Positions 2,835-38,900 of a stretch of DNA of 43,579 nucleotides are shown piece after piece; position 1 is the stretch's first letter; every line of letters begins with the position of its first letter. This stretch comes from a virus (Duplodnaviria; Heunggongvirae; Uroviricota; Caudoviricetes): IMG/VR virus record IMGVR_UViG_2671181030_000006. One strand, written 5' to 3'. A program made the translations under genes and the position numbers. The notes under the pieces are model-generated. The model did not search any database. It worked only from the letters and a program-made list of their open reading frames with translations, and was not told where the DNA came from.

Positions 2835-5669
2835 TTATGCCTGAGTACGCAGCGCTTCAAGGCGGCGCAGGTCGAAGTCGTTCAGTTCGTCGGTGTAGTC
2901 AGCAGTGATTGGCGCTGGCCATTCACCTGTGTCGAATCCGGTTGCGATATTGCGCATCGCTTTGCGGTACTCGAGCATACCCAGCTCCAGTAGTTCAGCG
3001 GATGCCTCGATGATGGCGATCCAGTGGTAGTTCTCGTCTTTGTTGACGAAAATCCAGAAGAACTGATCCAGCGCTGCGGTTTCGCAGTACATAGCCGCGC
3101 TCAGGTGATAATCACGTTCAATAATTTCCCGGTGTAGCCTGGCGCGCAGGCTTTCCTGCTTAACATTCCACATGCTGATGGTTTTCAGGTCAGCACCGAT
3201 ACGCACGCCGTCTAGGTCGATCTCAAGGTCAGGGCGCACACGAACTTCCAGTCCCGTCTCCTCGTCAAAGCCAAAGTAGCTCACCTCAACGGCGCGGCTC
3301 GGGTGGGTTAGCAGCATGCCTGCGGTCGGGTGTGCCAGCAGGGCCGACTGGATGGCCTGGGCGGTCACCAGCTGCTGGCGCGTCACCAGAATCTTGTCGC
3401 CCGGATTTTCTCGCCAGGCGTCCAGCAGCTCGTCGGCGAATACGGCATCGGGTTTAACCGACTTAATCGCTTGGATCATTTCCGCTTTGCTGCCGGACAC
3501 CTTAAGCGGTGCCGGCTTCTGGGCTTCCTGCTCCACCAGGTCAGGGTTGATGATTGCCAGCTGTTCAAGCAGCGCATCGCGGCTGCCGCTGGTTTTAACC
3601 GGCGCGGGCAGGGTGGCGTTGTACTCTTTGATGCAGGCTTTCATAGCTGCTGCGGTCTGCTTCTGGTCTGGCTCGATGCGCTGGTACTCTGCCGGCAAAG
3701 CCATATAGCTCTGGGCCGTTTCCTCCAGGCTGGCGCCCAGCGGCAGCTGCGCGGGCAGGGTGGCGTTGTGCTCTTCAAGCAGCGCTTTGATATCGTCAGT
3801 GCTCAGCAGTGCCGGCAGGGTGGCGTTGTGCGAATCGATGAACTCGCGCAGGGTGGCGGTGGTAGTAAAAGCATCTTCCGGGATCTCCGGCTCCACGCTG
3901 AACTCTGCCTCAAGGTTTTCAGGCTGCAGCGCCAGGGCGTGAACCAGATTACCCATGTCCAGCACCTTGGAAGGGGCCCGCGGGATAGTTTTGGCGACGT
4001 GGCGCGCGTTGAAGTACATCAGGCTGACCCTGGCATCCTTCACCTGGGTGGAACTGATCCCGTTCGCCGCGTGATAAACGTCATTCGGCACGCCTTCATA
4101 GCGGCCCGGTTCGAAGTACGCCGGGTATTCCGGGACCGGTTGTGAAGGTTGCTCTTCCGGCGCGCTCGCTTTCTCCTCTGATGCTTCGGTGGTCAATTCC
4201 TGCGTAGTGGCGTTCGCCAGCTCCGGCGCCGCGGCGGAGAGCACCTCAGCCGGGTTCAGGGTATCTGTTTGCGGATCAGTTGCATCAGCGCTTTCGCCTG
4301 GTGGTACCGTATCAACAGTTTTGTCTTTCTCTGGCTGAGTCGCTTCCATCTGCACATCGCTGGTGGTCTCCACTACGGTTTCCGGTTTTTCTGCTTCATT
4401 TGAGGGAATATTGATGACCGGGTTAGTATTTCCACTCAACAGGCCATTGATGGAGAACATGCCACCGCCGAGGTTCGCGACCTGCGGCTGAGCTGTTGGT
4501 TCCTCAACCTCTACTTGCGTCTGAACCGCGGACGCGCGCAGGGGCATCAGTTCAGTTGCGGCGTTAAACTCAGCGGTCATGGTCTGGTTAACGAACTCCA
4601 GATGGGCCGCCGGCGTACGATGAATGTTTTCCGGTGCGATCCGTACCAGGTTGAAAATGGCCGCACGGTTTACCGACAGAACGCCAGGCTGGTTACGCAG
4701 AAGGGCGCTCCATGATTTCCAGGGCTCTTCTTTTTTCGCCACGATTTCTTTGGCGCGACGGTGAATGCTGCCCGGGATCTCAAGGTGGTTGAAATCCATC
4801 GGCAGCAGGGCACAGGCGATCTCCAGATCCAGTGTGTCCAGCGTGTGATGCGCACCTTCGCCGCGGTCGGTGACATATCCACCATCGGCATTGGTACCTG
4901 CGTCAGTGCGCTGAACACTACTGATGTGATTACCGGCAGCCCATTCACGCGCCAGGATGCCACGGTCAATGTAATCAGTCGCCGCCCACATTCTGGTGAA
5001 ACGGAGTACCAGCGCGAGTTCGTGACGCTTGTCCTGGCTGAACACTTTGCGAATGGCATCGGTGTAGCGCCACAGGTCTTTGGTGTCGTAACCCTTCACT
5101 TCCGGGCAGTTCTCAGCAGCTAACAGCAAGTTCTGGACGTAACTGTTATCAGTGTCCATCTCCAGCGCGCCGATAGCTTCGTACTCTTCGCGGGTTACGT
5201 GGTGGCGCAGTTCGTCGGCGGTGAACTGGGAAAGCAGTTGCTTACGAAACGGCATCTGCACTACCGGGTAGAGGGTTGAGTCGTCGTCGTGTTCGTCCAG
5301 CGTGATGCCAGCGGTTTCTGGCAGCGTTGACTCAGTAGTTATGTGACTATCAACGGTCTGAGCCGTTTTCTCGTCAGAGTTTTCAGCTGTGACTTTTGGC
5401 AGCCAGGTGCGGTCATCGTTCTGCAGTTCGTAGCGTTCGCACCAGGTGTAATCCACTGCGCCTTCTTCCGGCAGGTCGTCATATACCGGGAAATCGGTGC
5501 GGATTGGTTTGGCATAATCTTTACCGCGGCCAGTTTCTTCAATTCCGGCTTCTTCCAGTGCCACATCGAGTTGGAGATTGGCGCGCGCTACACTTTTCGC
5601 AGTGAACCAAATCACTGCATCTTTCTTGCCAGACTTCTGACTGGCTTTTATCAGATGGAAAAATTCCAT
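2835..5669 (-). CDS. recE: RecE-like exodeoxyribonuclease VIII (C-terminal PD-(D/E)xK-type nuclease), with internal tandem repeats
   Basis: Seen: N-terminal FPVYDDLPEEGAVDYTWCERYEL and TDRGEG motifs closely resemble recalled E. coli RecE. Start chosen at ATG 5669 (MEFFHLIKA...) with a GAGGA Shine-Dalgarno upstream; the track ORF extends to 5774. Confidence 0.8.
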   Translation of the reverse strand: MEFFHLIKASQKSGKKDAVIWFTAKSVARANLQLDVALEEAGIEETGRGKDYAKPIRTDFPVYDDLPEEGAVDYTWCERYELQNDDRTWLPKVTAENSDEKTAQTVDSHITTESTLPETAGITLDEHDDDSTLYPVVQMPFRKQLLSQFTADELRHHVTREEYEAIGALEMDTDNSYVQNLLLAAENCPEVKGYDTKDLWRYTDAIRKVFSQDKRHELALVLRFTRMWAATDYIDRGILAREWAAGNHISSVQRTDAGTNADGGYVTDRGEGAHHTLDTLDLEIACALLPMDFNHLEIPGSIHRRAKEIVAKKEEPWKSWSALLRNQPGVLSVNRAAIFNLVRIAPENIHRTPAAHLEFVNQTMTAEFNAATELMPLRASAVQTQVEVEEPTAQPQVANLGGGMFSINGLLSGNTNPVINIPSNEAEKPETVVETTSDVQMEATQPEKDKTVDTVPPGESADATDPQTDTLNPAEVLSAAAPELANATTQELTTEASEEKASAPEEQPSQPVPEYPAYFEPGRYEGVPNDVYHAANGISSTQVKDARVSLMYFNARHVAKTIPRAPSKVLDMGNLVHALALQPENLEAEFSVEPEIPEDAFTTTATLREFIDSHNATLPALLSTDDIKALLEEHNATLPAQLPLGASLEETAQSYMALPAEYQRIEPDQKQTAAAMKACIKEYNATLPAPVKTSGSRDALLEQLAIINPDLVEQEAQKPAPLKVSGSKAEMIQAIKSVKPDAVFADELLDAWRENPGDKILVTRQQLVTAQAIQSALLAHPTAGMLLTHPSRAVEVSYFGFDEETGLEVRVRPDLEIDLDGVRIGADLKTISMWNVKQESLRARLHREIIERDYHLSAAMYCETAALDQFFWIFVNKDENYHWIAIIEASAELLELGMLEYRKAMRNIATGFDTGEWPAPITADYTDELNDFDLRRLEALRTQA
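3600..3865. repeat. Intragenic tandem repeats (about 4 copies of CAGGGTGGCGTTGT on the + strand) inside recE
   Basis: Seen: copies starting near 3609, 3755, 3815 and a degenerate one near 3849; they encode repeated xHNATLPA peptide units in RecE. Confidence 0.75.
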
Positions 5670-5807
5670 GTGAGATCCTCTTTTTTGAGTGTTAGAATCC
5701 CCGGGCCAGAGATAGCGCCCATTGGATGTTTTTTGGTTTGGTATAAATTCCGGTGTAACTTTGGTCGGTGGCACCGGACGTGAATCCCGCCTTGCGCGGG
5801 GTTTTCG

Positions 5808-6368: not shown

Positions 6369-6475
6369 GCAGGAACCTCATGTTCTCGGATCATCTCTTC
6401 ACCTTTGCCTTATCGCGGCTAACGGGACGTTTTGACTTCACCCCGGCGTTGCCGGTGTTGTTTGGATGAGATGAT

Positions 6476-6545
6476 AATACTCCTGGTATTATTTTATATC
6501 AATACCGCCAGTATTATTATGTTTAATAAAAATACTAAAGGTATG
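6476..6545. promoter_or_regulatory. OL-like operator cluster: three AATAC-N5-GTATT sites at 6476-6490, 6501-6515 and 6531-6545 (third has one mismatch); probable PL region
   Basis: Seen: the same 15-bp dyad motif recurs at OR next to cI. Established knowledge: lambdoid CI binds dyad operators at both OL and OR. Confidence 0.6.
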
Positions 6546-6615
6546 ATTTTAAAGTTAATTTATTTTTGTAAAAAGTGCTGTTATGCTCAAAAAAACATCA
6601 TAAAGGGGTGTTGGC

Positions 6616-6819
6616 ATGTCAAATGAGGATGAGTTTTTCGCAGAGATGCACCCGCAGATAGCGCAGGTCATCGGGATAGCGGTTATGCAACTGCTGGTTG
6701 AGAAGCGCGAGCCCTCAAGAGAGGCGCTGATAGAGATGATTCAGGTGTTGTGGCAGGAAGACCAGGTCGATCTGGCTGTGGAGTTGGCGCTGGACGTGCT
6801 GATGCTGAGGGAAGAGTAG
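6616..6819 (+). CDS. Hypothetical small acidic protein (67 aa)
   Basis: Seen: ORF with AAAGGGG Shine-Dalgarno about 8 nt upstream; lies between the OL cluster and the convergent hairpin terminator. Confidence 0.45.
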   Translation: MSNEDEFFAEMHPQIAQVIGIAVMQLLVEKREPSREALIEMIQVLWQEDQVDLAVELALDVLMLREE

Positions 6820-6825
6820 GGCAGT

Positions 6826-6848
6826 AAAAACCCGGCGCGGTGGCCGGG
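6826..6848 (-). terminator. Intrinsic terminator (tIMM-like) ending the cI-cassette transcript
   Basis: Seen: hairpin CCCGGC-GCGGTG-GCCGGG; on the minus strand it is followed by TTTTT. Confidence 0.5.
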
Positions 6849-6855
6849 TGAGATA

Positions 6856-7788
6856 TTAAAGAACCGATTTAACAAGATGGTTTTTACGGTACAGACCTAT
6901 GCGATCATTGTGAATCTCAGTAGTCTCCACTAAAAGAGAAACAATCTGTCCGACCTTGTGTTTTTTTTGTATTAAATCTAGCATTTCAATCGGATAGGAA
7001 GCCTTTAAATGTTCACCACCAACATCAAGCTCCAGCTTCCCATATTTGGATAGAACGACCAGTTCGCCTGTAACCGTTTCAGTAATGGGAGGGGATGAAA
7101 TGGTTGATGTAAGTCTACTCACCAAGTACTTAATTTTATTGGAGTCAATAGTTGCCACCTTGGTGCCATTACTAAATGGACCGGTCCAACTTGCATCAAA
7201 TGTTAAGTTGTGTTTATCGCATTCCTCTACGATTCTCTTAAGGCTTACAGTGGAATTGTATCCAATTTCAGCGACGTGATTCATGAAGTTGTTGTCGTCA
7301 TCGCTTAACAACAAATCGAATATGCCTTTTACAGCCTTGCTGGGTACTGTTTCTACTAATTCTGCTATTCCTGTAGAGAAGGTGACGCCCAATTTTGTAG
7401 ACCCAGGGGATAAATCAGCCAGCCTGAGGTTTAAGGAGCTTTTCACGTCGTAGGGAACTTTTTTTGAGTCCTTGCCTGAGGCAATTTTGTGTGTTGCTCT
7501 TTGTATTAGCGCTGCAAGATTTGTTGAAATAGCCCCAAGCAGCTCTAAAGGAATAGAGCCAAAGTCAACCTCAGAGCCTTTCAGCCGCAGCTCAAAAAAA
7601 TCGATAAGTGGGTGCCGACTATCTTGCTTTAATTTTTCGGCCTTCAAATCGCTCAGATGAGAATCCATGGAGCGATAAAGAAGCATGTCAGCAAAGGACC
7701 TGGTTTTGTTTTGCTTCATTGCATCGACTTCTTTTTGAATGAAATCAATGCGTTTATCGCAATTTTTAAACATTGATTTATCATTCAT
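6856..7788 (-). CDS. Hypothetical 310-aa protein, distal gene of the AT-rich two-gene cassette at the rex-equivalent locus (candidate defence effector or sensor)
   Basis: Seen: long AT-rich ORF with GAGGA Shine-Dalgarno; start overlaps the upstream gene stop (ATGA). No motif recognised. Confidence 0.7.
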   Translation of the reverse strand: MNDKSMFKNCDKRIDFIQKEVDAMKQNKTRSFADMLLYRSMDSHLSDLKAEKLKQDSRHPLIDFFELRLKGSEVDFGSIPLELLGAISTNLAALIQRATHKIASGKDSKKVPYDVKSSLNLRLADLSPGSTKLGVTFSTGIAELVETVPSKAVKGIFDLLLSDDDNNFMNHVAEIGYNSTVSLKRIVEECDKHNLTFDASWTGPFSNGTKVATIDSNKIKYLVSRLTSTISSPPITETVTGELVVLSKYGKLELDVGGEHLKASYPIEMLDLIQKKHKVGQIVSLLVETTEIHNDRIGLYRKNHLVKSVL

Positions 7789-8264
7789 AAAAAAATCCTC
7801 ACTAACCCTTTCGGGTTTTCACTGCGATCAAAACCAAACCAACCGCGCCAGTAGCTACGCCAGTACTCATAATCATAGTTAGGGTCATCTAAATTCTTCA
7901 TGAGTAGTAGGACATCAATTTTGTAGTTTTGTTTGATGTAGTTTCGGTCAAGCAAATTATCGACGCGGCCCCGAAGCATGACAGGTATTGAGTTTATATT
8001 GCTATAGTCACATACCAACAAAATATCAATATCATCAGGCTCTGGTTTAGACGTGGTGTATGAACCATCAACCCATATTTCTGTAAAACAGCCATATTGA
8101 GCAGATAATTCTCGAATAGATTCGAGTAGCTGTATAAAATTACAGTATAGCATGCCTCGCCTGGATGATGAAGGAAAGCAATCGACACAATACGATTTTA
8201 ATCCAGCTTCATCCATGTCATGGAACCCTGGCTCAAACAGGGGTGGGTAATTAATTTTATCCAT
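7785..8264 (-). CDS. Minimal nucleotidyltransferase-fold protein (GS-x9-DxD motif), proximal gene of the AT-rich cassette
   Basis: Seen: IWVDGSYTTSKPEPDDIDILLVCD matches the Pol-beta-type NTase signature hG[GS]-x9-13-DhDh. ATG 8264 chosen; the track start at 8312 is GTG. Confidence 0.7.
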   Translation of the reverse strand: MDKINYPPLFEPGFHDMDEAGLKSYCVDCFPSSSRRGMLYCNFIQLLESIRELSAQYGCFTEIWVDGSYTTSKPEPDDIDILLVCDYSNINSIPVMLRGRVDNLLDRNYIKQNYKIDVLLLMKNLDDPNYDYEYWRSYWRGWFGFDRSENPKGLVRIFL

Positions 8265-8413
8265 AAAAAACCTTGCTATACATTTGTTTTTTTTTATTAA
8301 AAATCTAACCACCGAAATGGTGACGGCAAGATGTTACATGGGGTTACAATCAGCCAATACACCGCATTAAATAATTTTTTCACCAGCTATGCGCCGACCA
8401 GAACACCTTGCCC

Positions 8414-8526
8414 ATCACCCAAACGTCTCTTCAGGCCACCATAAGCACGATCGCAACAACCGAGAGCAAAGTAACCACGCCTACTATCAGATATTCTCTC
8501 ATCACCCAAACGTCTCTTCAGGCCAC
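8414..8526. repeat. Two perfect 26-bp direct repeats (ATCACCCAAACGTCTCTTCAGGCCAC) at 8414-8439 and 8501-8526
   Basis: Seen directly; located between the cI stop and the NTase gene start. Confidence 0.85.
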
Positions 8527-8574
8527 TGTTAATCTGCTACCCATGCTTCCTGTACGTCCGCGGCATGCTGCTGA

Positions 8575-9285
8575 TCACACAAGTCTCAACTTAGTTTCTA
8601 CAGCCACACCAATGATCCGGCAATTCCCATTGATGGGAACCAATGGCCATTGAGGGTTTAAGCCCTTCAGGTACTTCTGGCCCCCATCAATAATCAGCTT
8701 TTTGAATGTCGCTTCGTTTGATTCGGATAGCTTTGCGATCACAAGGCTGCCATTTACTGGCTCTCGGCCGGTATCAAACAAAACGTAGGTACCCTCTGGT
8801 ATGCTGAGCCCGACCGGGGCAGTCATGGATTCCCCCTCGACCAACAACCAGAACGCATCCCCCTGGATGTGAGCGTCTGATTCTAGCCATAGATCGATAT
8901 CTTTAAGTGCATACGGCTCGCACGCTTCCGACCAATGCCCAGCCTGAATCTTGCTTAATACAGGGTATTTAATGCCTGGGGTGTACTGGCCTGCATACTT
9001 GGCATTCGATGTAGCGGAAGCACTCATTGCAGATATTTCTTTCGCAAGGCTGGGGCTAAAATCAGAGACATCCACCTGGAGGGCTCTGGCAAAAACAGCA
9101 GCCACGGCAGCATTAAGGGCATTCCTGCCATTCAAGTAATGCCCAACGCCCCCCTGAGATATGTCTAGCATGTCAGCTATTGATTGCTGTGTTATCCCAA
9201 GCTCTTTTTTCTTGGCTTCATAGAGGGCTTTCAGCCTTTCTGCGTCAGCGATCTGAGCCGATGTCAGTGTCTTTTTCTTTTCCAT
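8575..9285 (-). CDS. cI: CI-type prophage repressor: N-terminal HTH plus C-terminal LexA-like S24 autopeptidase domain
   Basis: Seen: HTH region (ITQQSIADMLDISQGGVGHYLNG), probable Ala-Gly cleavage site (IQAGHW), Ser (GESMT) and Lys (FKKL) catalytic-type residues. ATG 9285 chosen; the track begins at TTG 9291. Confidence 0.9.
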   Translation of the reverse strand: MEKKKTLTSAQIADAERLKALYEAKKKELGITQQSIADMLDISQGGVGHYLNGRNALNAAVAAVFARALQVDVSDFSPSLAKEISAMSASATSNAKYAGQYTPGIKYPVLSKIQAGHWSEACEPYALKDIDLWLESDAHIQGDAFWLLVEGESMTAPVGLSIPEGTYVLFDTGREPVNGSLVIAKLSESNEATFKKLIIDGGQKYLKGLNPQWPLVPINGNCRIIGVAVETKLRLV

Positions 9286-9296
9286 TTTCAAATAGT

Positions 9297-9358
9297 AATA
9301 CCAATGTTCTTATTTTAAAAATACTAGCGGTATTGCAATGTTTAATACTTGTGGTATT
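9297..9358. promoter_or_regulatory. OR-like operator cluster between cI and cro: AATAC-N5-GTATT at 9320-9334 and 9344-9358 plus a degenerate copy at 9297-9311; probable PRM/PR region
   Basis: Seen: perfect dyad sites 24 bp apart in the divergent cI/cro intergenic region, same motif as at OL. Confidence 0.65.
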
Positions 9359-9389: not shown

Positions 9390-9581
9390 ATGAAAATTTC
9401 TTTAGCTGAATACGTTGACGAAGTTGGACAGGCAAGAGCTGCTGATGCCATCGGCGTTCACCAGACCGCAATTAGTAAAGCTATCCGGGTAGGGCGGAAG
9501 ATTTTCGTTAACACCCTGCCTGATGGAAAAATTAAGGCTGAGGAGATCAAGCCTTTCCCACATAACAGAAATCCTGATTAA
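9390..9581 (+). CDS. cro: Cro-like HTH repressor
   Basis: Seen: 63-aa ORF divergent from cI, Shine-Dalgarno GGAG upstream, HTH-like GVHQTAISKAIR. Inference from position. Confidence 0.7.
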   Translation: MKISLAEYVDEVGQARAADAIGVHQTAISKAIRVGRKIFVNTLPDGKIKAEEIKPFPHNRNPD

Positions 9582-9660
9582 ACAAAGCTGAATTGAGCAG
9601 TCAGCGGGTTCTGACTGAGTAATTCAGCCATTCCAAACACCACCAGAGGAAGTATCACAA

Positions 9661-9882
9661 ATGGAGCGTTCAACGACACGCAACAAAGTGGAGGCTCGCA
9701 GGATAGAAAGCTGGTTACACAGCCAGATAGCTGAACTGGGAACCACGAATATCGCCAAAGTGGCCGGAGTGAATAAGTCGACGGTGAGTCGCTGGCGGGA
9801 AAGTCTGCTGCCGAACATGTCGCTACTGCTGGCCATCCTGATTTCTAACAGGCCGGGAGAGAAAGGTGATTTTGAAGCATGA
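9661..9882 (+). CDS. cII: CII transcriptional activator
   Basis: Seen: RIESWLHSQIAELGTTNIAKVAGVNKSTVSRWRESLLPNMSLLLAIL closely resembles recalled lambda CII. Confidence 0.85.
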   Translation: MERSTTRNKVEARRIESWLHSQIAELGTTNIAKVAGVNKSTVSRWRESLLPNMSLLLAILISNRPGEKGDFEA

Positions 9883-9967
9883 GTGGAAACAGAAGGGCGA
9901 AAGCCGCAGTGCGGGAACACTAACGGCTTTCTACGCGAATTAACTGAACAAATTCACAGGAGTAATT

Positions 9968-10987
9968 ATGGCAAATACTGCCGAAGTAATCAATTTCCCT
10001 GTGCCGGAAAAGGTACAGCAGGAGAGTCGCATGGCTGATCTGGACAATGGCTATCTGCGCCTTGCTAACCAGATTCAGGACGCCTTGTGTGTAGTGGAGC
10101 TTTCGGGGCGCGAATTTCGCGTGCTGAATGCAATTGTTCGCCTGACGTATGGCTGGTCGAAAAAAGAAGACCGGATCGCTAACAGCCTCATCGCTGACAA
10201 AACCATGCTGGCGGTTAAGCACGTTTCTGAAGCGGTTCTCAGCCTTGCTTATCGCAACATCATCAAGGTTCGCAGGATTGGGCAAACACGATACATCGGG
10301 ATCAACACCTGTCTGGATGCATGGGCTTATACCAAACCGAAATGCCCTAAATGTCCGGTGAGTTTTCCGGTCGCTGAAGTTGAAACGCAGGTTATCACCA
10401 TCCCTGAAATTAGGGATAGCAGAATAGCCGCGCCAACCATCCCTGAAAACAGGGATAACCATCCCCAAAAACAGGGAAAGGTATCCCCGGAAACAGGGAA
10501 CACCAAAGACATTCTTTCAAAGACAAATATAAAAACAGATCTAACCCCTATAGTCCCCGCTGGGGACGAGTGTGGAAAACCAGATCCCGATCCGGTTATT
10601 CAGGAGCAGCCGAAGACCGACCCTGTAAGACTGGTTTTCACCCACTGGCAGAAAGAACATGACCACCCGTCAGCAAAACTCGACGACAAACGCCGCAAGC
10701 GCATCAAGGCGCGACTGGCGGAAGGCTTCACTGTGGACGAGCTGTGCCGGGCCATAACTGGCGCAAAAGGCGATCCGTGGCTTATGGGAAAGAACCCTTC
10801 CAGAAAGCGCTATGACGGCATTGAGACGCTCCTGCGAGACGCTGCTCAGGTCGAAAAACTTCGTGATATGGCCGGCGATGCTCACGCAATGGCAATTGCT
10901 CAGGGCCAGTACTCAGCCACAACGGCTCGCAACCTTGAAACCCTCCAGCGCTGGGCTGGCGGCACTGATTCAGGAGAACTTTTCTGA
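9968..10987 (+). CDS. Replication initiator protein (lambda O-like N-terminal domain), containing the origin iterons
   Basis: Seen: N-terminal LSGREFRVLNAIVRLTYGWSKKEDRIANS, typical of O-family initiators; iterons lie inside the gene; AGGAG Shine-Dalgarno. Confidence 0.85.
   Translation: MANTAEVINFPVPEKVQQESRMADLDNGYLRLANQIQDALCVVELSGREFRVLNAIVRLTYGWSKKEDRIANSLIADKTMLAVKHVSEAVLSLAYRNIIKVRRIGQTRYIGINTCLDAWAYTKPKCPKCPVSFPVAEVETQVITIPEIRDSRIAAPTIPENRDNHPQKQGKVSPETGNTKDILSKTNIKTDLTPIVPAGDECGKPDPDPVIQEQPKTDPVRLVFTHWQKEHDHPSAKLDDKRRKRIKARLAEGFTVDELCRAITGAKGDPWLMGKNPSRKRYDGIETLLRDAAQVEKLRDMAGDAHAMAIAQGQYSATTARNLETLQRWAGGTDSGELF
10400..10545. repeat. Candidate replication origin: four about 19-bp iterons (ATCCCTGAAAnnAGGGATA-type) followed by an AT-rich tract
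   Basis: Seen: four tandem iteron-like repeats between about 10400 and 10500, then an AT-rich stretch. Established knowledge: lambda ori lies within gene O and has this architecture. Confidence 0.7.
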
Positions 10988-11577
10988 TGAACGATTCTGA
11001 AAAACCAAAGTTCGCCCAGTCCATGGCAGCGATCGGCGAGATTTACGGAAAGGATATATCCGAGGTGATGGTGGGTATTTACTGGAATGCCCTCAAGCCT
11101 TACCCGGTTGAAGATGTGATGCGCTCCTTCCAGGGGCATACCCGCGATACCGACAACGGCCAGTTTTTCCCTAAGCCTGCGGATCTTCTTCGTCACATCG
11201 AAGGCAACAAAGATGGCAAAGCGCTGATGGCCTGGTCGAAAGCATACAGGGCAATCTGCAGTTATGGGCGCCGCAACAGCGTTGTGTTTGATGATCCGAT
11301 CATCCATGCGGTCATTGCCGATATGGGTGGGTGGATTGAATTTGCCGGGATGAGCGAAGAGGAATTGCCGTTCCGTTCCCGCGAGTTCGAAAAGCGTTAC
11401 CGCTCTTACCTGATAACCGGCGTCAGCAAGTGCGAAACGGTGATGATCGGCATGGATGATGCGCAGAACATGCGCGCGGGATTCCTGCGCGAACCAATGC
11501 CATTTCTGATTGGCGAGAAGGACAAGGCCAAGCTCATTCGCAACGGACAGGCGCTTCTTGAGAACAGGTGGCAATGA
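10987..11577 (+). CDS. Hypothetical replication-module protein (at the position of a helicase loader, but no ATPase or lambda-P motif seen)
   Basis: Seen: 196-aa ORF; start overlaps the O-like stop. Confidence 0.6.
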   Translation: MNDSEKPKFAQSMAAIGEIYGKDISEVMVGIYWNALKPYPVEDVMRSFQGHTRDTDNGQFFPKPADLLRHIEGNKDGKALMAWSKAYRAICSYGRRNSVVFDDPIIHAVIADMGGWIEFAGMSEEELPFRSREFEKRYRSYLITGVSKCETVMIGMDDAQNMRAGFLREPMPFLIGEKDKAKLIRNGQALLENRWQ

Positions 11578-11870
11578 TGACAGGCAAAGACGCAATTCTG
11601 AACTACCTGAAAACGCATAAAACCTGCAGCTCTCCAGATGTCGCCGCGGCTTCAGGAATGACGCATACCTGCATCAACCAGGCTGCAAATATCCTGGCAA
11701 AGCAGGGGGTGCTGGTAGCGGAAGCTCGGGTGTGGCGTACGGTTTACTACCGGTTGGCCACTGAAGAAGAAATTTCAGGCAGGAAGAGCACCAATCAGAT
11801 TTTTAACGAGTGTCGGCAAAGCCCGGCGATGAAGCGGGTACTGGCTGTTTACGGGAGAACATCAGCATGA
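11574..11870 (+). CDS. Hypothetical protein, possible winged-helix DNA-binding
   Basis: Seen: ORF with overlapping start (ATGATGA). Inference only. Confidence 0.5.
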   Translation: MMTGKDAILNYLKTHKTCSSPDVAAASGMTHTCINQAANILAKQGVLVAEARVWRTVYYRLATEEEISGRKSTNQIFNECRQSPAMKRVLAVYGRTSA

Positions 11871-12490
11871 CTATCACACTACAGGCAGTAAACGAGCTCA
11901 TCGCCTTCTTGGAGAGCGCAGGCGAGCTGTCGATCAGAGAGCAGAAGTATCTGGACGTTATGCGCTGGGCGATTCGTGTTGCTGGCGAGCGTGATGCGGC
12001 GCTGAATGCAGAGCTTGTATGGGAAAAGACCATGATGGAAGCTTGCGGCGAGGATGGCCCTGCGTCGGTAGCCAACGAAATTCGCTCGTTGCGGGCTCTA
12101 CGGGATACGGCAATTCAGGCGCTTAAGTCTCAGGTTGAGCAGCTGTCTGCGGAGAATGTGGCGCTGAAGGCAGCCGTTGCGGAAGAAATTGAAGTTATCA
12201 ATCGTGGTGGACAGCGGTATTGCGTGAAGGACGGCATGTCTATAAACCCGATATATGCGCGCGGATGGAATGACCACCGGGCTAATTTGACAGCAGTAGA
12301 AACCCCCGCCACAGATCGCTTCGTAGTCGGGATTAAGGCTGATGGGGTGGAAGAGTTTGCAGCGATGACAGAAAAAGTTGGTGATGAAGAGGAGTTTTAC
12401 GATCACGGGGAGTCTTCTGAGACGCTGAAATACACGGCTAAGCAAGCAAGATTATTCGCCCAGCAGCTGCGCGATGGGGCCGACAAATGA
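11867..12490 (+). CDS. Hypothetical protein
   Basis: Seen: ORF starting MTITLQAV at an ATGA overlap with the upstream stop; the track ORF starts earlier at 11810. Confidence 0.55.
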   Translation: MTITLQAVNELIAFLESAGELSIREQKYLDVMRWAIRVAGERDAALNAELVWEKTMMEACGEDGPASVANEIRSLRALRDTAIQALKSQVEQLSAENVALKAAVAEEIEVINRGGQRYCVKDGMSINPIYARGWNDHRANLTAVETPATDRFVVGIKADGVEEFAAMTEKVGDEEEFYDHGESSETLKYTAKQARLFAQQLRDGADK

Positions 12491-17759: not shown

Positions 17760-18038
17760 ATGACCAGAATGAGCACCATTTACAGCAGACTTTCATATGG
17801 AACAGGAACCACGCTGACCGGCTGCGGTGTATCAGCGAAGGCATATGCCGAAACAGCTAAAACAGCAAAAGAGGTGTCCTGGATGTTGGCCGACAGAATT
17901 GCAGGGTTAAGCCTGAGCGACTGGGCAATTATTGTCGGTATCGCATGCACTGTTATTACCTGTGCAGTGAACTGGTATTTCCGCTGGAAAGAACGGGAGG
18001 ATCGGCGCAATGGCTATGCCACCAAAGCTGAAGAATAG
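17760..18038 (+). CDS. Holin, pinholin (S21-like) type, with dual-start motif
   Basis: Seen: Shine-Dalgarno GGAGGTGAGG; MTRM dual start; hydrophobic core then [13 protein letters not shown], resembling recalled phage 21 S. Confidence 0.75.
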
Positions 18039-18582
18039 CGTTATTGCAGCGATACCCGCTGGCGCTATTGCTATCGCTGCGGCGTTGATTACTGGCCCAA
18101 CGGGTAATGATGGCCTTGAAGGTGTACGCTATCAGCCTTATCGGGATGTTGTTGGAGTGTGGACTGTATGCTGGGGCCATACTGGTAAAGATATTATCCT
18201 CGGCAAGACCTACACCAAAGCAGAGTGCCAGGCGCTGCTGGATAAAGACCTGAATATTGTCGCCCGACAGATTAACCCATATATCAATGCTCCGATCCCC
18301 GAAACGATGAGAGGGGCGCTGTACTCATTTGCGTATAACGTAGGCGCGGGAAACTTCAAAACCTCCACACTGTTACGAAAAATCAACCAGGGTGATTCGA
18401 AAGGCGCATGCGAACAACTGCGGCGCTGGATCTATGCTGGTGACAAACAGTGGAAGGGTTTAATCACGAGGCGTGAGATTGAGCGTGAAGTTTGCCTGTG
18501 GGCAGAGAAACCTCAGGTTCTGGGGGATGGACTCGGGCCGCTTAACCCTGGCATTCCGGTATCAGTTCCGGGGGTATTCTGA
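18010..18582 (+). CDS. SAR endolysin (T4-lysozyme-like muramidase with N-terminal signal-anchor-release helix)
   Basis: Seen: N-terminal hydrophobic Gly/Ala-rich stretch ([18 protein letters not shown]) followed by a lysozyme-like region ([16 protein letters not shown]). Confidence 0.85.
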
Positions 18583-19118
18583 TGAAACCCAGAAAAATTA
18601 CGATTGTTGCGGTTCTGCTGGTGGCTGTCGTAATCATTATTGCAGTGCTTAGCGTATTACTGGTTCGTAGCCGCTCAGCTCTTGAAACAGAACAGAGTGA
18701 GAATCGGGTATTACGTAATGATAACGCGCTGCAGGCGACGGTGATAACTACACAGGCTTTCAACTTCAATCGGTTTAACCAGATAGCAGAGAACGCCAAC
18801 CGCCTTAACTCGCTGATCGATGCCGGTACTGAGAAAACTGTCATCGAATACCGGGAGATTCTCCGACGTGAAAAGACCTGTGATCTGCCTGTTCCTGCTG
18901 ATGTCGCTGGTGGGCTGCTCAAATACGCGTACCGTTTACGTGCCAGCGCAATGCACCCCGATACCGGGAACACTAACGCAACCGATGATAGTACCGCTGC
19001 CGCCAGCTCAATGACGTATTGCCAGGCCGTCCTCTGGATTGAACCTTTGCTGGCTGTTATTGAGAAGGGCAACAATAACCTGGCGGGTATACGAGAGATT
19101 GAGAAGTTACGAAAATGA
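18582..19118 (+). CDS. Rz-like inner-membrane spanin (i-spanin)
   Basis: Seen: N-terminal transmembrane helix then coiled-coil-like sequence; an embedded out-of-frame lipoprotein ORF is present. Confidence 0.75.
   Translation: MKPRKITIVAVLLVAVVIIIAVLSVLLVRSRSALETEQSENRVLRNDNALQATVITTQAFNFNRFNQIAENANRLNSLIDAGTEKTVIEYREILRREKTCDLPVPADVAGGLLKYAYRLRASAMHPDTGNTNATDDSTAAASSMTYCQAVLWIEPLLAVIEKGNNNLAGIREIEKLRK
18868..19014 (+). CDS. Rz1-like outer-membrane lipoprotein spanin (o-spanin), embedded in Rz in another frame
   Basis: Seen: GTG-start ORF (V)KRPVICLFLLMSLVGCS with lipobox LVGC and Pro-rich tail. Confidence 0.6.
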   Translation: MKRPVICLFLLMSLVGCSNTRTVYVPAQCTPIPGTLTQPMIVPLPPAQ

Positions 19119-19692: not shown

Positions 19693-20595
19693 ATGCCTAA
19701 TTGGAGCGACGTACTGGGCGAGATAACGGCTCTCGCCCATAAAAGTCCTATGGATGAGGTTCGCCGTAAATACTTATCTCAACTTTCGAATCATACTGGA
19801 AGAAATGTAATCACATATTACTCAGGGTGGTTACAGCATGGTGGTGCAGAAGTACGCCATCTTACTCAGATGACTGATGATGATAAGAACGGGTTGATGA
19901 CAGCCATCAATGGTTTAGATGTATCAAAAGGGTTGGATTTGATACTTCATACTCCAGGTGGTGATATTGCCGCTTTGGAATCAATCGGGCATTACTTAAG
20001 GTCGAAGTTTGGAACTAACATCAGAGCAATTGTTCCTATGATTTCAATGTCCTGCGGAACTATGCTTGCATGTTGTGCCAATGAAATCATCATGGGTAAA
20101 CAGTCCAACATTGGCCCAATTGATCCTCAGTTCAACGGTTTCTCCACCCATGCCATCATTGAAGAATGGAATCGTGCGCAGACGGAAATTTTTCAAAATC
20201 CCGCAGCTGTTCAGATGTGGCAGTTCATTCTTCAAAAGCTAAACCCGACGATCATCGGCGAGTGTGAGAAAGCAATCAAATGGGCAAATGAGATTGTTAA
20301 GCATTGGCTTATGACAGGCATGTTTGATAATGATCCTGAGGCAGAATCAAAAGCAACACATGTTTGTTCAGAGTTAAACAACCATCACACAACCTATACC
20401 CACTCGCGTCATATTCATTTTGATAAGGCGCAGAAAATTGGGTTGAATGTTACCGAACTTGAAAGTGATCAAGTACTTCAAGATTTGGTTTTGACTATAC
20501 ATCACAGCTACATGCATTCTTTTGGTGGAGCACCACTGGCAAAAATCATTGAAAATCATAACGGTAACGCAATGATTTGGAATATCCAGTCTTAA
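19693..20595 (+). CDS. ClpP/S49-fold serine protease-like protein (SDH-proteinase-like), moron gene
   Basis: Seen: LHTPGGDIAALESI and IVPMISMSCGTMLACCANEI resemble the ClpP/SppA motifs (xSPGG and the catalytic-Ser GxSxG region). Family call is from memory of those motifs. Confidence 0.6.
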   Translation: MPNWSDVLGEITALAHKSPMDEVRRKYLSQLSNHTGRNVITYYSGWLQHGGAEVRHLTQMTDDDKNGLMTAINGLDVSKGLDLILHTPGGDIAALESIGHYLRSKFGTNIRAIVPMISMSCGTMLACCANEIIMGKQSNIGPIDPQFNGFSTHAIIEEWNRAQTEIFQNPAAVQMWQFILQKLNPTIIGECEKAIKWANEIVKHWLMTGMFDNDPEAESKATHVCSELNNHHTTYTHSRHIHFDKAQKIGLNVTELESDQVLQDLVLTIHHSYMHSFGGAPLAKIIENHNGNAMIWNIQS

Positions 20596-20863: not shown

Positions 20864-21364
20864 GTGTTCACCATCATGGACCAGGAAATTGCCACTTTAA
20901 AACTCAATATCAACCAGCTGGCAGGGATAACCGGCGTACACCGTCAGACGGTTGCCGCGAGACTGAAAAATGTTGAACCTGCTCCAGGCAGCAATAGCAA
21001 GTTAAAGCTCTATCTGGTGACCGACATTCTGACCGAACTGATGATCCCTACCGTTTCGGCCAACATCGACGATATGCCCCCTTCTGACAGGCTGTCCCAC
21101 TGGAAAGCAGAGAACGAGAGGCTGAAGTTCGAACAGGATACGGGGCAGTTAATACCCGCAGATGAAGTGGCGCGAGAATTCTCATTGATGGCGAAAGCCG
21201 TCGTCATGGTACTTGAAACCCTCCCGGATGTGCTCGAGCGCGACTGTGCTTTAACGCCTGCTGCGGTAGTTCGTGTGCAAAGCGTTATCGATGATCTGCG
21301 CGACCAGATGGCGGAGAAGGTGCAGGACGCTGGAAAAGAGGAGGAGCAGCCTGAGGAGGACTGA
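20864..21364 (+). CDS. Terminase small subunit (Nu1-like)
   Basis: Seen: N-terminal HTH-like INQLAGITGVHRQTVAARLKN; acidic C-terminus; followed by the large subunit with overlapping start. ATG 20876 is an alternative start. Confidence 0.8.
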   Translation: MFTIMDQEIATLKLNINQLAGITGVHRQTVAARLKNVEPAPGSNSKLKLYLVTDILTELMIPTVSANIDDMPPSDRLSHWKAENERLKFEQDTGQLIPADEVAREFSLMAKAVVMVLETLPDVLERDCALTPAAVVRVQSVIDDLRDQMAEKVQDAGKEEEQPEED

Positions 21365-35287: not shown

Positions 35288-35897
35288 GACGCTTATTCTC
35301 GAAGGTAAAATGGCAAAAAAATTCGGTAAACGCGTTCAGTTTGATGTTGCCGACCTGCGCGAGATGCTCAGGGCCATGTGTTCACAGGTTCCCGGATTCA
35401 AAAAATATATGTCTGAAGCTCATATGAAGGGGATCCGTTTCGCCTTTTTTAACGGTGGCAACAATATCGGGCTGGAAGAGTTTGATATGACCCGCGGTGG
35501 AAGCGTGTACCGGATCGTGCCCGTTTATGAGGGGGCCAAAAGTTCGGGCGTCCTGCAGATAGTTGTCGGGGCTGTTGCGCTGGTCGCTGCATTCTTTACC
35601 GCTGGTGCGAGCATGGCAGCCTGGGGCGCGGCGATGAGTGCAACAGCTATCAGCGCCACGTCAATTCTGACAGGGGTCGGAGTGTCGATGATGCTGGGGG
35701 GCGTTGTCCAGATGCTCACGCCCCAGCCATCCTTCGGCGCGGGTAAATCCTCCAGCACGGACAACACGCCTAACTACGCCTTCGGGGCGCCGGTCAATAC
35801 CGTCGCTATGGGGCATCCTGTCCCCCTGGCCTACGGTCTGACTGAGGCAGGGGGAGCGATAGTCAGCGCCGGTATGTACTCGAGCGATCAGCAGTAG
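35280..35897 (+). CDS. I: Tail assembly protein gpI
   Basis: Seen: GAKSSGVLQIVVGAVALVAAFFTAGASMAAWGAA...MMLGGVVQMLTPQP resembles recalled lambda I. Confidence 0.85.
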   Translation: MVKTLILEGKMAKKFGKRVQFDVADLREMLRAMCSQVPGFKKYMSEAHMKGIRFAFFNGGNNIGLEEFDMTRGGSVYRIVPVYEGAKSSGVLQIVVGAVALVAAFFTAGASMAAWGAAMSATAISATSILTGVGVSMMLGGVVQMLTPQPSFGAGKSSSTDNTPNYAFGAPVNTVAMGHPVPLAYGLTEAGGAIVSAGMYSSDQQ

Positions 35898-35916
35898 GCC
35901 AGCGGCCACTAACTTA

Positions 35917-35939
35917 AAGGTGCTTCGGCACCTTTTTTT
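35917..35939 (+). terminator. Intrinsic-terminator-like hairpin plus T-tract immediately upstream of J
   Basis: Seen: AAGGTGC-TTCG-GCACCTT followed by TTTTTTT, abutting the first in-frame ATG of J at 35940. Confidence 0.45.
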
Positions 35940-35951
35940 ATGGGTGAAAAA

Positions 35952-38900
35952 ATGCAGCTTCTTAAACAAGAAACCATCCTGCAGGGTGCCAAAGGGGGAG
36001 GTGGCAGTTCACATACTCCGGTTGAGCAGCCTGACGATCTGCTGTCGGTCGCAAAATTAAAAATGCTCATTGCCGTTTCTGAGGGGGAAATACAGGGCGA
36101 CCTGACCGCTCAGAACATTTTTCTCAACGATACGCCGCTGGCAAACGACAGCGGGGAATACAACTTCAGCGGCGTGAAATGGGAGTTCCGCAAGGGCACA
36201 CAGGACCAGACCTATATTGCCGGGATGCCCCAGGTCGACAACGAGCTGGCCGTGGGCACAACTGTCACCACCACCGCGCCCTGGACGCGCCAGTTTACAA
36301 ACCTTTCCCTGGATGCCATCCGTATCAAGCTCAGCCTTCCGGTCCAGTATCTCTATAAAGATAATGGCGATATGGTGGGCACGGTCACCGAGTATGCGAT
36401 CGATTTATCAACGGACGGCGGCGCCTGGAAAACGGTTGTAAACGGCAAGTTTGACGGAAAGACCACGACGGAATATCAGCGTGACCACCGTATCGATCTG
36501 CCAAAATCCACGTCCGGCTGGTCTGTCAGGGTCAGGCGTATTACGGCTGATGCCAGCGGATCAAATTCGAAACTGGTTAACGCCTTCAAGGTGTTTTCGT
36601 ATGCGGAAGTCATCGACAGCAAGCTTCGTTATCCTTTAACAGCGCTCCTGTATGTCGAAGTGGACAGCAGCCAATTCAACGGCAGCGCGCCGAAAGTGAC
36701 CTGTAAGATAAAAGGCAAGCTGATTAAGGTTCCGGATAATTACGATCCGAAAACCCGAACCTATTCTGGTTCATGGTCCGGCGGGTTCAAAATGGCATGG
36801 TCCAATAACCCTGCCTGGATCTTTTACGATCTGGTTCTGGATGAAATTTACGGCATGGGCACGCGCGTGGATGCGTCCATGGTGGATAAGTGGGCGCTGT
36901 ATTCAATCGCCCAGTACTGTGACGAAATGGTTTCCGACGGGGCCGGTGGCACCGAACCGCGTTTCACCTGCAACGTTTTCATTCAGAGCCAGGAGGACGC
37001 CTGGCAGGTACTTAACGATCTCGCCGCGGTATTTCGTGGAATAACGTTCTGGGGCAACGATCAGATTTATGTCCAGGCAGACGTCCCGCAGGACGATGTT
37101 GACTGGGTTTATAACGTCTCAAACGTTATCGATGGGCTGTTTACTTATGCGGGCGGCTCATACAAGAATCGCTACAGCTCCTGCCTGGTGTCCTGGTCCG
37201 ATCCGCAGAACCATTACAGCGATACCGTTGAGGGGGTTTACGATTCGGCGCTTGTAGAACGTTACGACGTCCGGCAGACGTCCCTGACCGCAATCGGCTG
37301 CACCTCGCAAAGTGAAGCGCACCGACGCGGTCGCTGGGTATTGCTCTCCAATGCCAAAGACGGGACCGTATCGTTTGGCGTGGGGCTGGACGGTTATATC
37401 CCTTTGCCCGCTGAAATTATCGGTGTCGCCGATCCTTTCCGCTCTGGTAAGGAGAACGGGGGCCGTATAAGCGCGGCCAACGGCCGCCAAATTACCCTCG
37501 ATCGAGAAATAGACTACGCGGCGAAAGACCGGCTGGTGGTTAACCTTCCCGACGGAAAAGCCCAGACGCGGACAATCAGCGCGGTGAGCGCCGATAAAAA
37601 AACGGTGACGGTGGCTACGGCATTCAGTCAGGTTCCTGTGGCGGGCGCTGTTTGGGCGATAGACAGTGATAACCTCGCAATACAGTACTTCAGGGTCACC
37701 TCAATCGCGGCTAACGACGACAGTACAGGCGGTTTCACTATTACGGCCGTTCAGCACGATCCAAACAAATATCGTTACATCGATGACGGCGTTCGGGTCG
37801 AGTCTCCCCCGATCACCGTCACGCCGATAAGCGTCCTGTCTGCTCCGAAGAATATCGTGGTGACTGAGAGCGATCATGTGTCTCAGGGGCTGACTGTAGC
37901 AAGCCTGGACGTGTCATGGGATAAGGTAGAGGGCGCAATCCGGTATGTTGCCCAGTGGCGTAAGGACAACGGGGACTGGATAAACGTTCCGGTTACCAGC
38001 GCGCAGGGTTTCTCGGTTCAGGGCATTTATTCGGGCAGCTATGACGTGCGCGTACGGGCGCTGAATGCGCAGGATACGTCGTCACCATGGGGATACGGTG
38101 AAACAACTTATCTCTCCGGTAAAACGGGAAAACCGGGTACTCCGCTCAACTTCCTGGCGACCGAAGATGTGGTCTGGCATATCGACCTGACCTGGAAATT
38201 TCCGGATGGCTCAGGCGACACGGCCTATACAGAGATTCAGCGCGCCACAACTGCCGACTACGCCAATCCTGAACTGCTGGTCCTGGTGCCGTACCCGGCT
38301 GCAGATTATCAGCATGGCCCCATGCCTGCCGGCGTTCGCCAGTGGTACCGCGCGCGCCTGATTGACCGTATCGGTAACGCCGGGGACTGGACCGACTGGA
38401 TCATGGGCACGTCCTCGATAGATGTCAGCGAAATAACTAATGACATTCTGGAGGATATGAAAGAGTCGGAAACGTTCAAAGACCTGATCGAGAACGCGGT
38501 GGACAGCAACGAAAAAATTGCTGGCATGGCTAACGATATCAAACAGGCCAACGACGAACTGGAGCAGCAAGCGAAAGATATCGCCAAAAATGCCCAGGAC
38601 GTCGGGAAGGTTCAGACCAGCGTTAATGAGCTTTCCAGCACGGTCGGGAATGTTTCGTCTTCACTCAGTCAGCTTGAGCAGACCGTTGCGACGGCTGATA
38701 CCGCCCTGGGCCAGCGAATCGACAACATCAGCGTTTCTATGGACGGCATGACGGGCGGGGTGAAGAACTCTGCAATTGCGATAATCCAGGCCAACCTCGC
38801 TCAGGTGGCCACGCGTAAAACCCTTTCTGCATCGGTCGCCGGCAACAGCGCGAATCTGGACCGCATTGATGAAGTGATTGTCAACGACAGGGAGGCAACG

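Follow-up and report, generated by a model that had tools for sequence, protein, structure and literature searches.

Introduction

In phage lambda, cI, rexA, and rexB are transcribed as one unit that ends at a terminator, and RexB is a polytopic membrane protein. In the type VII system HepT/MntA, the nucleotidyltransferase (NTase) MntA AMPylates its partner HepT, as the titles of PDB entries 7ae9 and 7bxo also indicate. The present analysis concerns two overlapping genes, referred to here as gene A and gene B, which occupy the position of rexAB in a stretch of viral DNA of 43,579 nucleotides (nt) (Caudoviricetes; IMG/VR record IMGVR_UViG_2671181030_000006), the whole of which is termed the window. 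Gene A (7785–8264, minus strand) encodes protein A, of 159 amino acids (aa), which carries the domain DUF6932 and corresponds to PDC-M63A, and gene B (6856–7788, minus strand) encodes protein B, of 310 aa, which corresponds to PDC-M63B.

The interval between cI and N, in which such genes are found, has been described as a mosaic hotspot with two abortive-infection systems among its contents, RexAB and BstA (PMC8585504). The PDC systems, 145 in number, are cassettes that sit inside BREX, DISARM, or type I restriction-modification loci and that were collected by an approach called ‘guilt-by-embedding’ and added to PADLOC as candidates without assay (Payne et al., 2024, bioRxiv 10.1101/2024.01.29.577857), and they were left out of DefensePredictor owing to this candidate-only status. 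In the literature, a study of Escherichia coli NILS69 is the only paper that names PDC-M63; no papers were found for DUF6932 (PF22014), and searches on mEpX1 and the mEp phages turned up nothing on these genes. On balance, we lean towards reading the gene pair of the window, which is the prophage form of PDC-M63, as a lysogen-expressed exclusion or abortive-infection module.

Identity and Distribution of the Gene Pair

Both proteins are recognized by existing models. Protein A matches Pfam DUF6932 with 87.3 bits against a gathering threshold of 27 (E 1.7e-24), as do all 87 of the 87 homologues compared, and its residues 1–158 align to positions 1–148 of the 152 in the PADLOC model PDC-M63A (E 1.8e-41). 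Protein B matches PDC-M63B with E 7.5e-45 for the best of the six B models, and each of 42 B homologues matches all six. Both proteins also fall into PHROG families, which carry function-less labels, and NCBIfam has no model for either. The same genes are present between cI and N in the Escherichia phage mEpX1, with 99.6% DNA identity and 100% identity of protein B, and the cassette occurs at ≥99% identity in 18 of 5426 complete E. coli genomes; in the two of these that were opened, it lies between differing repressor alleles and a remnant of N.

With both models matched and the two neighboring genes overlapping on one strand, nothing sets the pair apart from PDC-M63. Judged by sequence, it is a member of PDC-M63 and belongs to a divergent enterobacterial prophage branch, the clade scoring around 1e-45 with the PDC-M63 models compared with values down to 1e-121 for other members. 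The initial annotation of this DNA had proposed an undescribed system, which does not hold in view of the PADLOC, Pfam, and PHROG entries and the mEpX1 records; the entity is already known, and its role in defense is that of an untested candidate system as listed by PADLOC. The window brings no new entity, but instead context evidence for an existing candidate, together with a residue-level hypothesis on Ser130 of protein B. What the analysis adds is the exact replacement of rexAB, two recombination linkers, the breadth of the association with repressors, and the description of protein B as an orphan family with one invariant serine.

Gene order was compared across 59 loci, in which open reading frames (ORFs) of at least 120 aa were judged by eye, and with no hidden Markov model (HMM), to be repressor-like. 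Gene A stands directly upstream of gene B in all 59, with a 4-nt overlap in 58 (the exception being an alternative start call), and a repressor-like ORF lies on the same strand just upstream of gene A in 56. The other three consist of two loci that end before the upstream sequence and one (L032) in which no repressor-like ORF was found. The gap between repressor and gene A is mostly 45–270 nt; it widens to ∼410–680 nt, enough to accommodate further genes, in L006, L062, and L063, all three from Providencia. At least 15 repressor alleles precede the pair, including lambda cI and short non-S24 repressors, and the arrangement is unchanged in divergent copies from E. coli and Providencia (46–55% identity).

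Outside prophages, distant A homologues (37–43% identity) in chromosomal settings also have an overlapping B homologue of 310–321 aa behind them, and the distant B homologues share 21–25% identity (pairwise E 5e-21 and 8e-32). The non-enterobacterial pairs stand in Bacteroidota-like gene neighborhoods, away from any repressor. Some of the non-prophage pairs adjoin PIN_12, caspase-like, PDDEXK_9, or large DUF4011/AAA_11/AAA_12/DUF3320 helicase genes, others have housekeeping neighbors, and no third conserved gene was seen beside the pair in the non-phage contexts examined.

This distribution bears on the proposal that the pair has nothing to do with exclusion and serves as lysogenic-conversion or regulatory cargo, such as an NTase complex that alters the physiology of the host by modifying its RNA, a protein, or a small molecule, or that tunes prophage induction. 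The strict linkage to a repressor in Enterobacterales would suit such cargo, as would the frequent benefit of lysogen-expressed morons to host fitness and the negative outcome of the published defense test discussed below. That non-enterobacterial genomes contain pairs with no repressor nearby, however, indicates no dependence on cI, and the PIN_12, caspase-like, and PDDEXK neighbors, the exact replacement of rexAB, and the origin of the catalogue entry in defense-embedded cassettes all speak for a different role, so that we consider conversion cargo improbable.

The identities of proteins A and B to those of the window co-vary (r = 0.92), and comparison with the 81%-identical cassette of locus L027 gives dN/dS values of 0.067 for gene A and 0.059 for gene B. 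The two genes are obligate partners that diverge together, and purifying selection on them is strong. Since E values go down to 1e-106 for homologues of protein A and to 2e-194 for those of protein B, and dN/dS is ∼0.06, neither ORF is a chance reading frame. A HMMER search of 1.84 billion representatives (E ≤ 1e-3) returned 275 B-family clusters at 50% identity, nearly all of 300–330 aa, and among the 150 clusters listed there was no clear extra length for a second domain. The notion that the cassette is decaying or selfish filler DNA without current function could appeal to occasional disrupted copies, but it is effectively refuted by the low dN/dS of both genes, by a length and architecture kept across the 275 clusters, and by the invariance of the catalytic residues of protein A.

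Three such disrupted copies were noted. In E. coli KL53 (L067, NZ_CP030919, 4968–6508), an insertion of the ISVsa5/IS4 family lies in the 5′ part of gene A and gene B is intact; in a metagenomic locus (L070, 7571–7840), gene A is cut to 89 aa, again with gene B intact; and in a viral contig (L064, 4001–4932), gene B is frameshifted and gene A intact. As these copies exist in nature, neither protein alone appears to be obviously lethal.

Replacement of rexAB and Exchange of the Cassette

Scanning IMG/VR with an alignment of the B family yielded 55 viral loci, two of which (L019 and L022) encode lambda cI itself. In BLAST comparisons of these two with lambda, homology runs from 38300 to 37196, which is 31 nt past the cI stop codon, and restarts at 35825, where the rexB stop codon has its last base; the A–B cassette fills the interval. 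From these breakpoints, the cassette replaces rexA and rexB exactly (lambda 35826–37195). In the Klebsiella phage ST101-KPC2phi6.1 (MK448231), a 67-aa ORF that is also found in the window is followed by rexB–rexA in the same slot, and phage vB_Kpn_RAH1 has other small ORFs there. The description of the site as a rexAB-equivalent locus, made in the initial annotation, is therefore confirmed by the exact replacement in lambda-immunity phages and by rexB–rexA in the sibling Klebsiella phage.

The cassette is bounded by two linkers. The right-hand linker (8384–8439, minus strand), delimited by BLAST against lambda and by a four-way alignment, consists of a second remnant of the cI 3′ end and a further 31 nt. 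Its identity to lambda 37196–37251 is 96%, and the homology to lambda stops here. Junction alignments gave an upstream linker common to lambda, mEpX1, L019, and the window, which reads ...CAGTGGCCTGAAGAGACGTTTGGxTGATxGGCAAGGTGTTCTGGTCGGCGCATAGCTG. The left-hand linker (6824–6849, minus strand) was found in a terminator scan as a rho-independent terminator, with the GC-rich hairpin ACCCGGCCACCGCGCCGGGT and then a T-run (6849–6830, minus strand), 6 nt past the stop codon of gene B. In the same junction alignments, the downstream linker is the hairpin ACCCGGCCnCnGCGCCGGGTTTT, common to lambda (after rexB), mEpX1, L019, and the window. According to this alignment, the terminator of the window is a homologue of the hairpin after lambda rexB, which we take to be tIMM, and the “tIMM-like” terminator noted at first is thereby more than a look-alike.

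The block held in common with other phages covers 6819/6827–8439 of the window, and phages with many immunity types exchange the cassette as this ∼1.6-kb unit. The hotspot between cI and N thus trades cargo by recombination in two short conserved linkers. The allelic swap of rexAB and PDC-M63 offers an unusually clean experimental frame, in which promoter, leader linker, and terminator are constant and the cargo varies, and for which mEpX1 is a K-12-compatible phage.

The pair resembles lambda RexA/RexB in its slot, its strand, its flanking linkers, its two genes, and its presumed co-transcription with cI, and lambda-immunity phages carry one or the other of the two cassettes as natural alleles. 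They differ in that there is no sequence or fold similarity between them and no Pfam or PADLOC Rex match, and in that protein A is of an enzyme class absent from Rex. There is also no transmembrane segment in either protein, the maximum 19-residue Kyte-Doolittle hydropathy being 1.25 for A and 1.38 for B, and a Rex-like membrane protein is ruled out by this lack of hydrophobic segments. The pair is a positional allele of RexAB, not a homologue.

Several further observations were made at the linkers. The spacer between cI and gene A contains two copies (8415–8438 and 8502–8525, minus strand), 87 nt apart, of the 27-nt lambda-type cI 3′ end. The first of these remnants, TGGCCTGAAGAGACGTTTGGGTGA (8502–8525), encodes WPEETFG* and lies outside the present cI gene, which ends with ...ETKLRLV, unlike the remnants. 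Positions 8415–8527 are 98% identical to phi80, and the arrangement with two copies is also present in L013, L021, and KL53, with one copy in most loci. The remnants have the look of recombination scars that are stacked at the linker.

The flanks of the window (6387–6819 and 9600–12000) are 92–97% identical to Klebsiella phages, and the cassette (6827–8439) matches copies from phages and genomes of E. coli with 99.6–100% identity. A Klebsiella-type variant of the cassette (L027; K. michiganensis P0004) has 81% DNA identity and 87–88% protein identity to that of the window. Klebsiella-like flanks around an E. coli-like cassette suggest that the cassette was recently exchanged laterally between lineages. 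In the Providencia prophages L006 (4969–5466) and L063, extra small genes, including one for a DUF3024 protein, lie between the repressor and gene A, which indicates that the rex slot can hold stacked cargo.

Protein A, a Putative Minimal Nucleotidyltransferase

Protein A contains the NTase signature WVDGS-x9-DDIDI. Among the 87 homologues, G67, S68, D78, and D80 are invariant and D117 is present in at least 90%, and invariance extends to R36, W64, T71, and K73 as well as to the C-terminal S137-Y-W-R-G-x-F143...E149, of which the SYWRGxF motif is specific to this family. In the AlphaFold (AF2) model, which has a predicted local distance difference test (pLDDT) score of 95.9, the strands E60–66, E79–86, and E116–123 bear the three motifs. 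Pfam matches among the homologues were to Polbeta (59 of the 87), NTP_transf_2 (48, weak), and DNA_pol_B_palm (46). Searches against PDB sequences, by single sequence and by profile, gave nothing significant, with sub-threshold matches to Pol-beta palm domains only. Foldseek matches in the PDB were all to NTases, namely a Sulfolobus minimal NTase, MNT antitoxins, HI0073, CdnC, ANT/AadA, and poly(A) polymerase (E 6e-3 to 0.3), of which the MNT antitoxins were the top matches (E 6e-3 to 0.15, TM 0.24–0.39).

Taken from motifs and model, protein A is probably a divergent minimal NTase of the Pol-beta type and is predicted to be active. A small NTase of ∼159 aa with this signature had been proposed from the start, and the GS/DxD/D set conserved across the 87 homologues, together with DUF6932, agrees with it.

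The Pol-beta superfamily also includes the NTases of AbiE and CBASS, and CdnC is among the weak fold matches of protein A, but at 159 aa protein A is about half the size of the NTases of these systems. For AbiE, neither protein has an AbiEii/DUF1814 or AbiEi match in Pfam or PADLOC, and protein B is not a winged helix-turn-helix antitoxin. For CBASS, there is no match to PADLOC CBASS models or to Pfam SMODS, the fold matches to CdnC/CdnE are weak and partial, and protein B is no known CBASS effector. The pair is placed outside CBASS, HepT/MntA, AbiE, and Rex by the Pfam and PADLOC searches and by the motif and hydropathy tests, in line with the first assessment of its architecture.

Protein B, an Orphan Family With an Invariant Serine

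No Pfam family is common to 42 diverse members of the B family, and searches against PDB sequences (single sequence and profile) found no relative of protein B, with one spurious match to an LPXTG repeat. The model of this soluble protein (pLDDT 81.9) starts at the N-terminus with a helical hairpin, continues with a mixed central part, and ends in a C-terminal β1-β2-β3-helix-β4-β5 unit (residues 235–309), the topology of which we take to be that of an OB fold. The C-terminus (∼235–309) is accordingly modeled as an OB-like β-barrel, and weak Foldseek matches to S1 domains, single-stranded DNA-binding proteins (SSBs), and the C-terminal domain of eIF5A fit this description.

Among 119 representatives that are 18–46% identical to protein B of the window, Ser130 is the sole invariant residue (119/119). 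It is followed in conservation by G129 and W201 (118 each), G77 (117), and G176 and E/D63 (116 each). Ser130 is the S in the loop motif [DN]LR[LF]xG[LIV]xxGS[TS][RK] of the central module, and residues 123–129, just before it, have the lowest confidence of the model (pLDDT < 50; ∼48 for the loop), which suggests that the Ser130 region is a mobile loop.

The strongest fold match of protein B in the database BFVD was to a viral DUF6575 protein (E 2.3e-12 over 252 columns, TM 0.45 and 0.38), followed by a protein of Leptospira phage LE1 (6e-8). DUF6575 occurs in one experimentally validated PD system of E. coli (Vassallo et al., 2022, PMC9519451). Half of the B homologues compared (21 of 42) show a weak similarity to the N-terminus of PADLOC PDC-M32A, another candidate (best 5e-9). 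With regard to both of these, the likeness lies in the fold match and in the N-terminal PDC-M32A matches; the Pfam DUF6575 HMM matches none of the 42 homologues at E ≤ 1, so that protein B is rejected as a member of DUF6575 and the resemblance is at the level of the fold only. A KilA-N fold like that of BstA, a prophage abortive-infection protein encoded downstream of cI, had also been suggested for the 310-aa protein, but profile and fold searches of this cI-adjacent protein did not find a KilA-N domain.

The pair resembles HepT/MntA only in its gene arrangement, a minimal Pol-beta NTase being encoded first and overlapping a larger partner gene in both. From this comparison follows the alternative that the pair is a type VII-like toxin–antitoxin or addiction module that serves mainly to stabilize the prophage or mobile element, where protein B would be a toxin silenced by nucleotidylylation by protein A, and defense would be at most a by-product. 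The position of the MNT antitoxins of HEPN/MNT modules as best fold matches of protein A, the small enzyme placed first in an operon of overlapping genes, the invariant serine in a flexible loop of protein B that could serve as an acceptor, and the portability of the pair among unrelated genomic contexts would all be expected of such a module. The partner, however, is not HEPN: protein B has no conserved Rx4-6H motif and no HEPN match by Pfam or fold search, and a HEPN partner is ruled out on this basis. Protein A further differs from MntA in an extra N-terminal region and the SYWRGxF motif, and its fold matches are weak (E ≥ 6e-3). Loci with gene A disrupted and gene B intact persist in nature, both genes were deleted together in NILS69 with no comment from the authors, and addiction would bring little to a prophage that is integrated into the chromosome. 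A toxin–antitoxin role therefore seems to us a rather unlikely explanation of the pair.

Possible Role in Exclusion

An exclusion or abortive-infection role is favored by the rexAB slot, the portability of the pair, the defense-embedded origin of the PDC systems, purifying selection, the intact NTase site, and the conserved serine loop of protein B. Three points weigh against it. Firstly, deletion of PDC-M63AB from the prophage of E. coli NILS69 left efficiency of plating and infection in liquid unchanged with 10 virulent dsDNA phages, a panel that the authors of that study themselves call narrow; activity mainly against temperate or lambdoid phages would explain a negative test with virulent ones. 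Secondly, the Foldseek matches of protein A in the PDB are weak throughout, with a best E of 6e-3 and TM of 0.24–0.39. Thirdly, the disrupted copies in KL53, L070, and L064 weaken a simple picture of a toxin and its neutralizer.

As regards expression, the position of the pair suggests a transcript in lysogens that would start at the repressor promoter (pRM/pRE), read through into the pair, and end at the hairpin. The gaps of down to 45 nt between repressor and gene A leave no room for separate signals, and in the window no sigma-70 consensus promoter reached the scan threshold in the cassette leader or elsewhere between cI and gene A, nor did the terminator scan find a strong terminator there, all of which is consistent with read-through. 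The spacer between cI and gene A is 310 nt long in the window, and it includes an AT-rich cassette leader (8265–8383, minus strand) with an AAGG ribosome-binding site and one weak hairpin (8327–8308). A structured RNA or attenuator in this leader was considered and rejected, as the RNA fold was nothing unusual (z = −1.16).

The same position is relevant to the idea that the pair is counter-defense cargo, in which an NTase complex neutralizes host immunity, for example by consuming or modifying a signaling nucleotide or a defense protein. Nucleotide-modifying enzymes encoded by phages are a known anti-defense theme, and the cassette would also be read from pRE while lysogeny is established. It lies upstream of pL, however, and hence outside the early lytic transcript, stand-alone chromosomal pairs are common outside phages, and the slot is one used by exclusion systems, which together make counter-defense very unlikely.

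Under the exclusion or abortive-infection reading, proteins A and B may form a complex that would exclude or abort infection by other phages, probably temperate ones, and the key step would be nucleotidyl transfer by protein A. Given a role of this kind, catalysis by the NTase is very likely to be required. Our most specific guess is that the nucleotide would be transferred to the Ser130/Thr131 loop of protein B as an on/off switch, as MntA does on HepT, although protein B is a doubtful acceptor even if the pair defends. Alternatively, transfer could be to a 3′ end of nucleic acid presented by the OB-like domain of protein B, and, on the same premise, nucleic acid as the acceptor may be entertained as a tentative possibility. 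The fullest version of this reading, that the pair truly excludes or aborts infection by an unprecedented mechanism (protein A nucleotidylylating the Ser130 loop of protein B or tagging nucleic acid presented by it), acts mainly against temperate or lambdoid phages, and is exchangeable as a functional rexAB allele via the linkers, is offered as a conjecture rather than as our expectation. If the pair does defend, it would be a mechanistically new two-protein system among those expressed from the repressor operon of prophages, in which a minimal NTase is coupled to a non-HEPN partner.

Organization of the Immunity Region

The gene to the right of the cassette encodes a cI-type repressor of 238 aa (8575–9291, minus strand; Pfam Peptidase_S24 2.7e-22 and HTH_3 1.2e-8). 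Directly to the right of cI are the OR operators and cro (9390–9581, opposite in strand to cI; Pfam Cro 1.3e-23), and cII also lies on this side. The reading frame of gene A spans 7785–8312 (minus strand), and the ATG at 8264 was chosen as its start since the resulting 159 aa agree with the homologues (155–159 aa, consensus MxKxxFPPL) and with the RefSeq annotation. The stop codon of gene A and the start codon of gene B overlap in ATGA, with a Shine-Dalgarno sequence (GTGAGGA) 8 nt before the start of gene B.

To the left, the region OL/pL (6474–6545, minus strand) was identified by matching operators between OL and OR and by a promoter scan. It contains three operator-like palindromes of the form AATACYnnnnGGTATT (6476–6490, 6501–6515, and 6531–6545), which match two OR sites between cI and cro, at 9320 and 9344, and a pL-like promoter (6502–6474, minus strand) with TTGATA and TATTAT separated by 17 nt. 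The ORFs, the ATGA overlap, the hairpin, and the operators all fit the two coupled minus-strand genes that the initial annotation had placed between cI and a terminator in front of OL. It had also described the cassette as more AT-rich than its phage surroundings, and the GC content is indeed 40.2%, compared with 52.3% for the window, a value that only the lowest 0.4% of the 1409-bp windows reach. GC at third codon positions (GC3) is 0.39–0.41 in the cassette genes compared with 0.52 in cI.

Between the terminator and OL lies the 67-aa acidic ORF already mentioned (6616–6819, plus strand; phrog_3946), which is convergent with the cassette and has no Pfam or PADLOC match. It is 92–95% conserved in Klebsiella lambdoid phages, whether rexB or other cargo fills the rex slot. 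This ORF is flank and not part of the cassette.

Other Features of the Window

In the pL operon, a 979-aa ORF (2835–5774, minus strand) has a long acidic low-complexity middle and a C-terminal part that by eye resembles a PD-(D/E)XK/YqaJ-type exonuclease; it has no PADLOC match. A second AT-rich island (19693–20595, plus strand; GC ∼0.405) encodes a 300-aa ClpP-like serine protease of the SDH type (Pfam PF01972, 8.4e-23), for which there was likewise no PADLOC match. It lies between the lysis genes, labeled by eye as an endolysin-like ORF (18010–18582) and a spanin-like ORF (18582–19118), and a small-terminase-like ORF that begins at 20864, which is a classic moron position.

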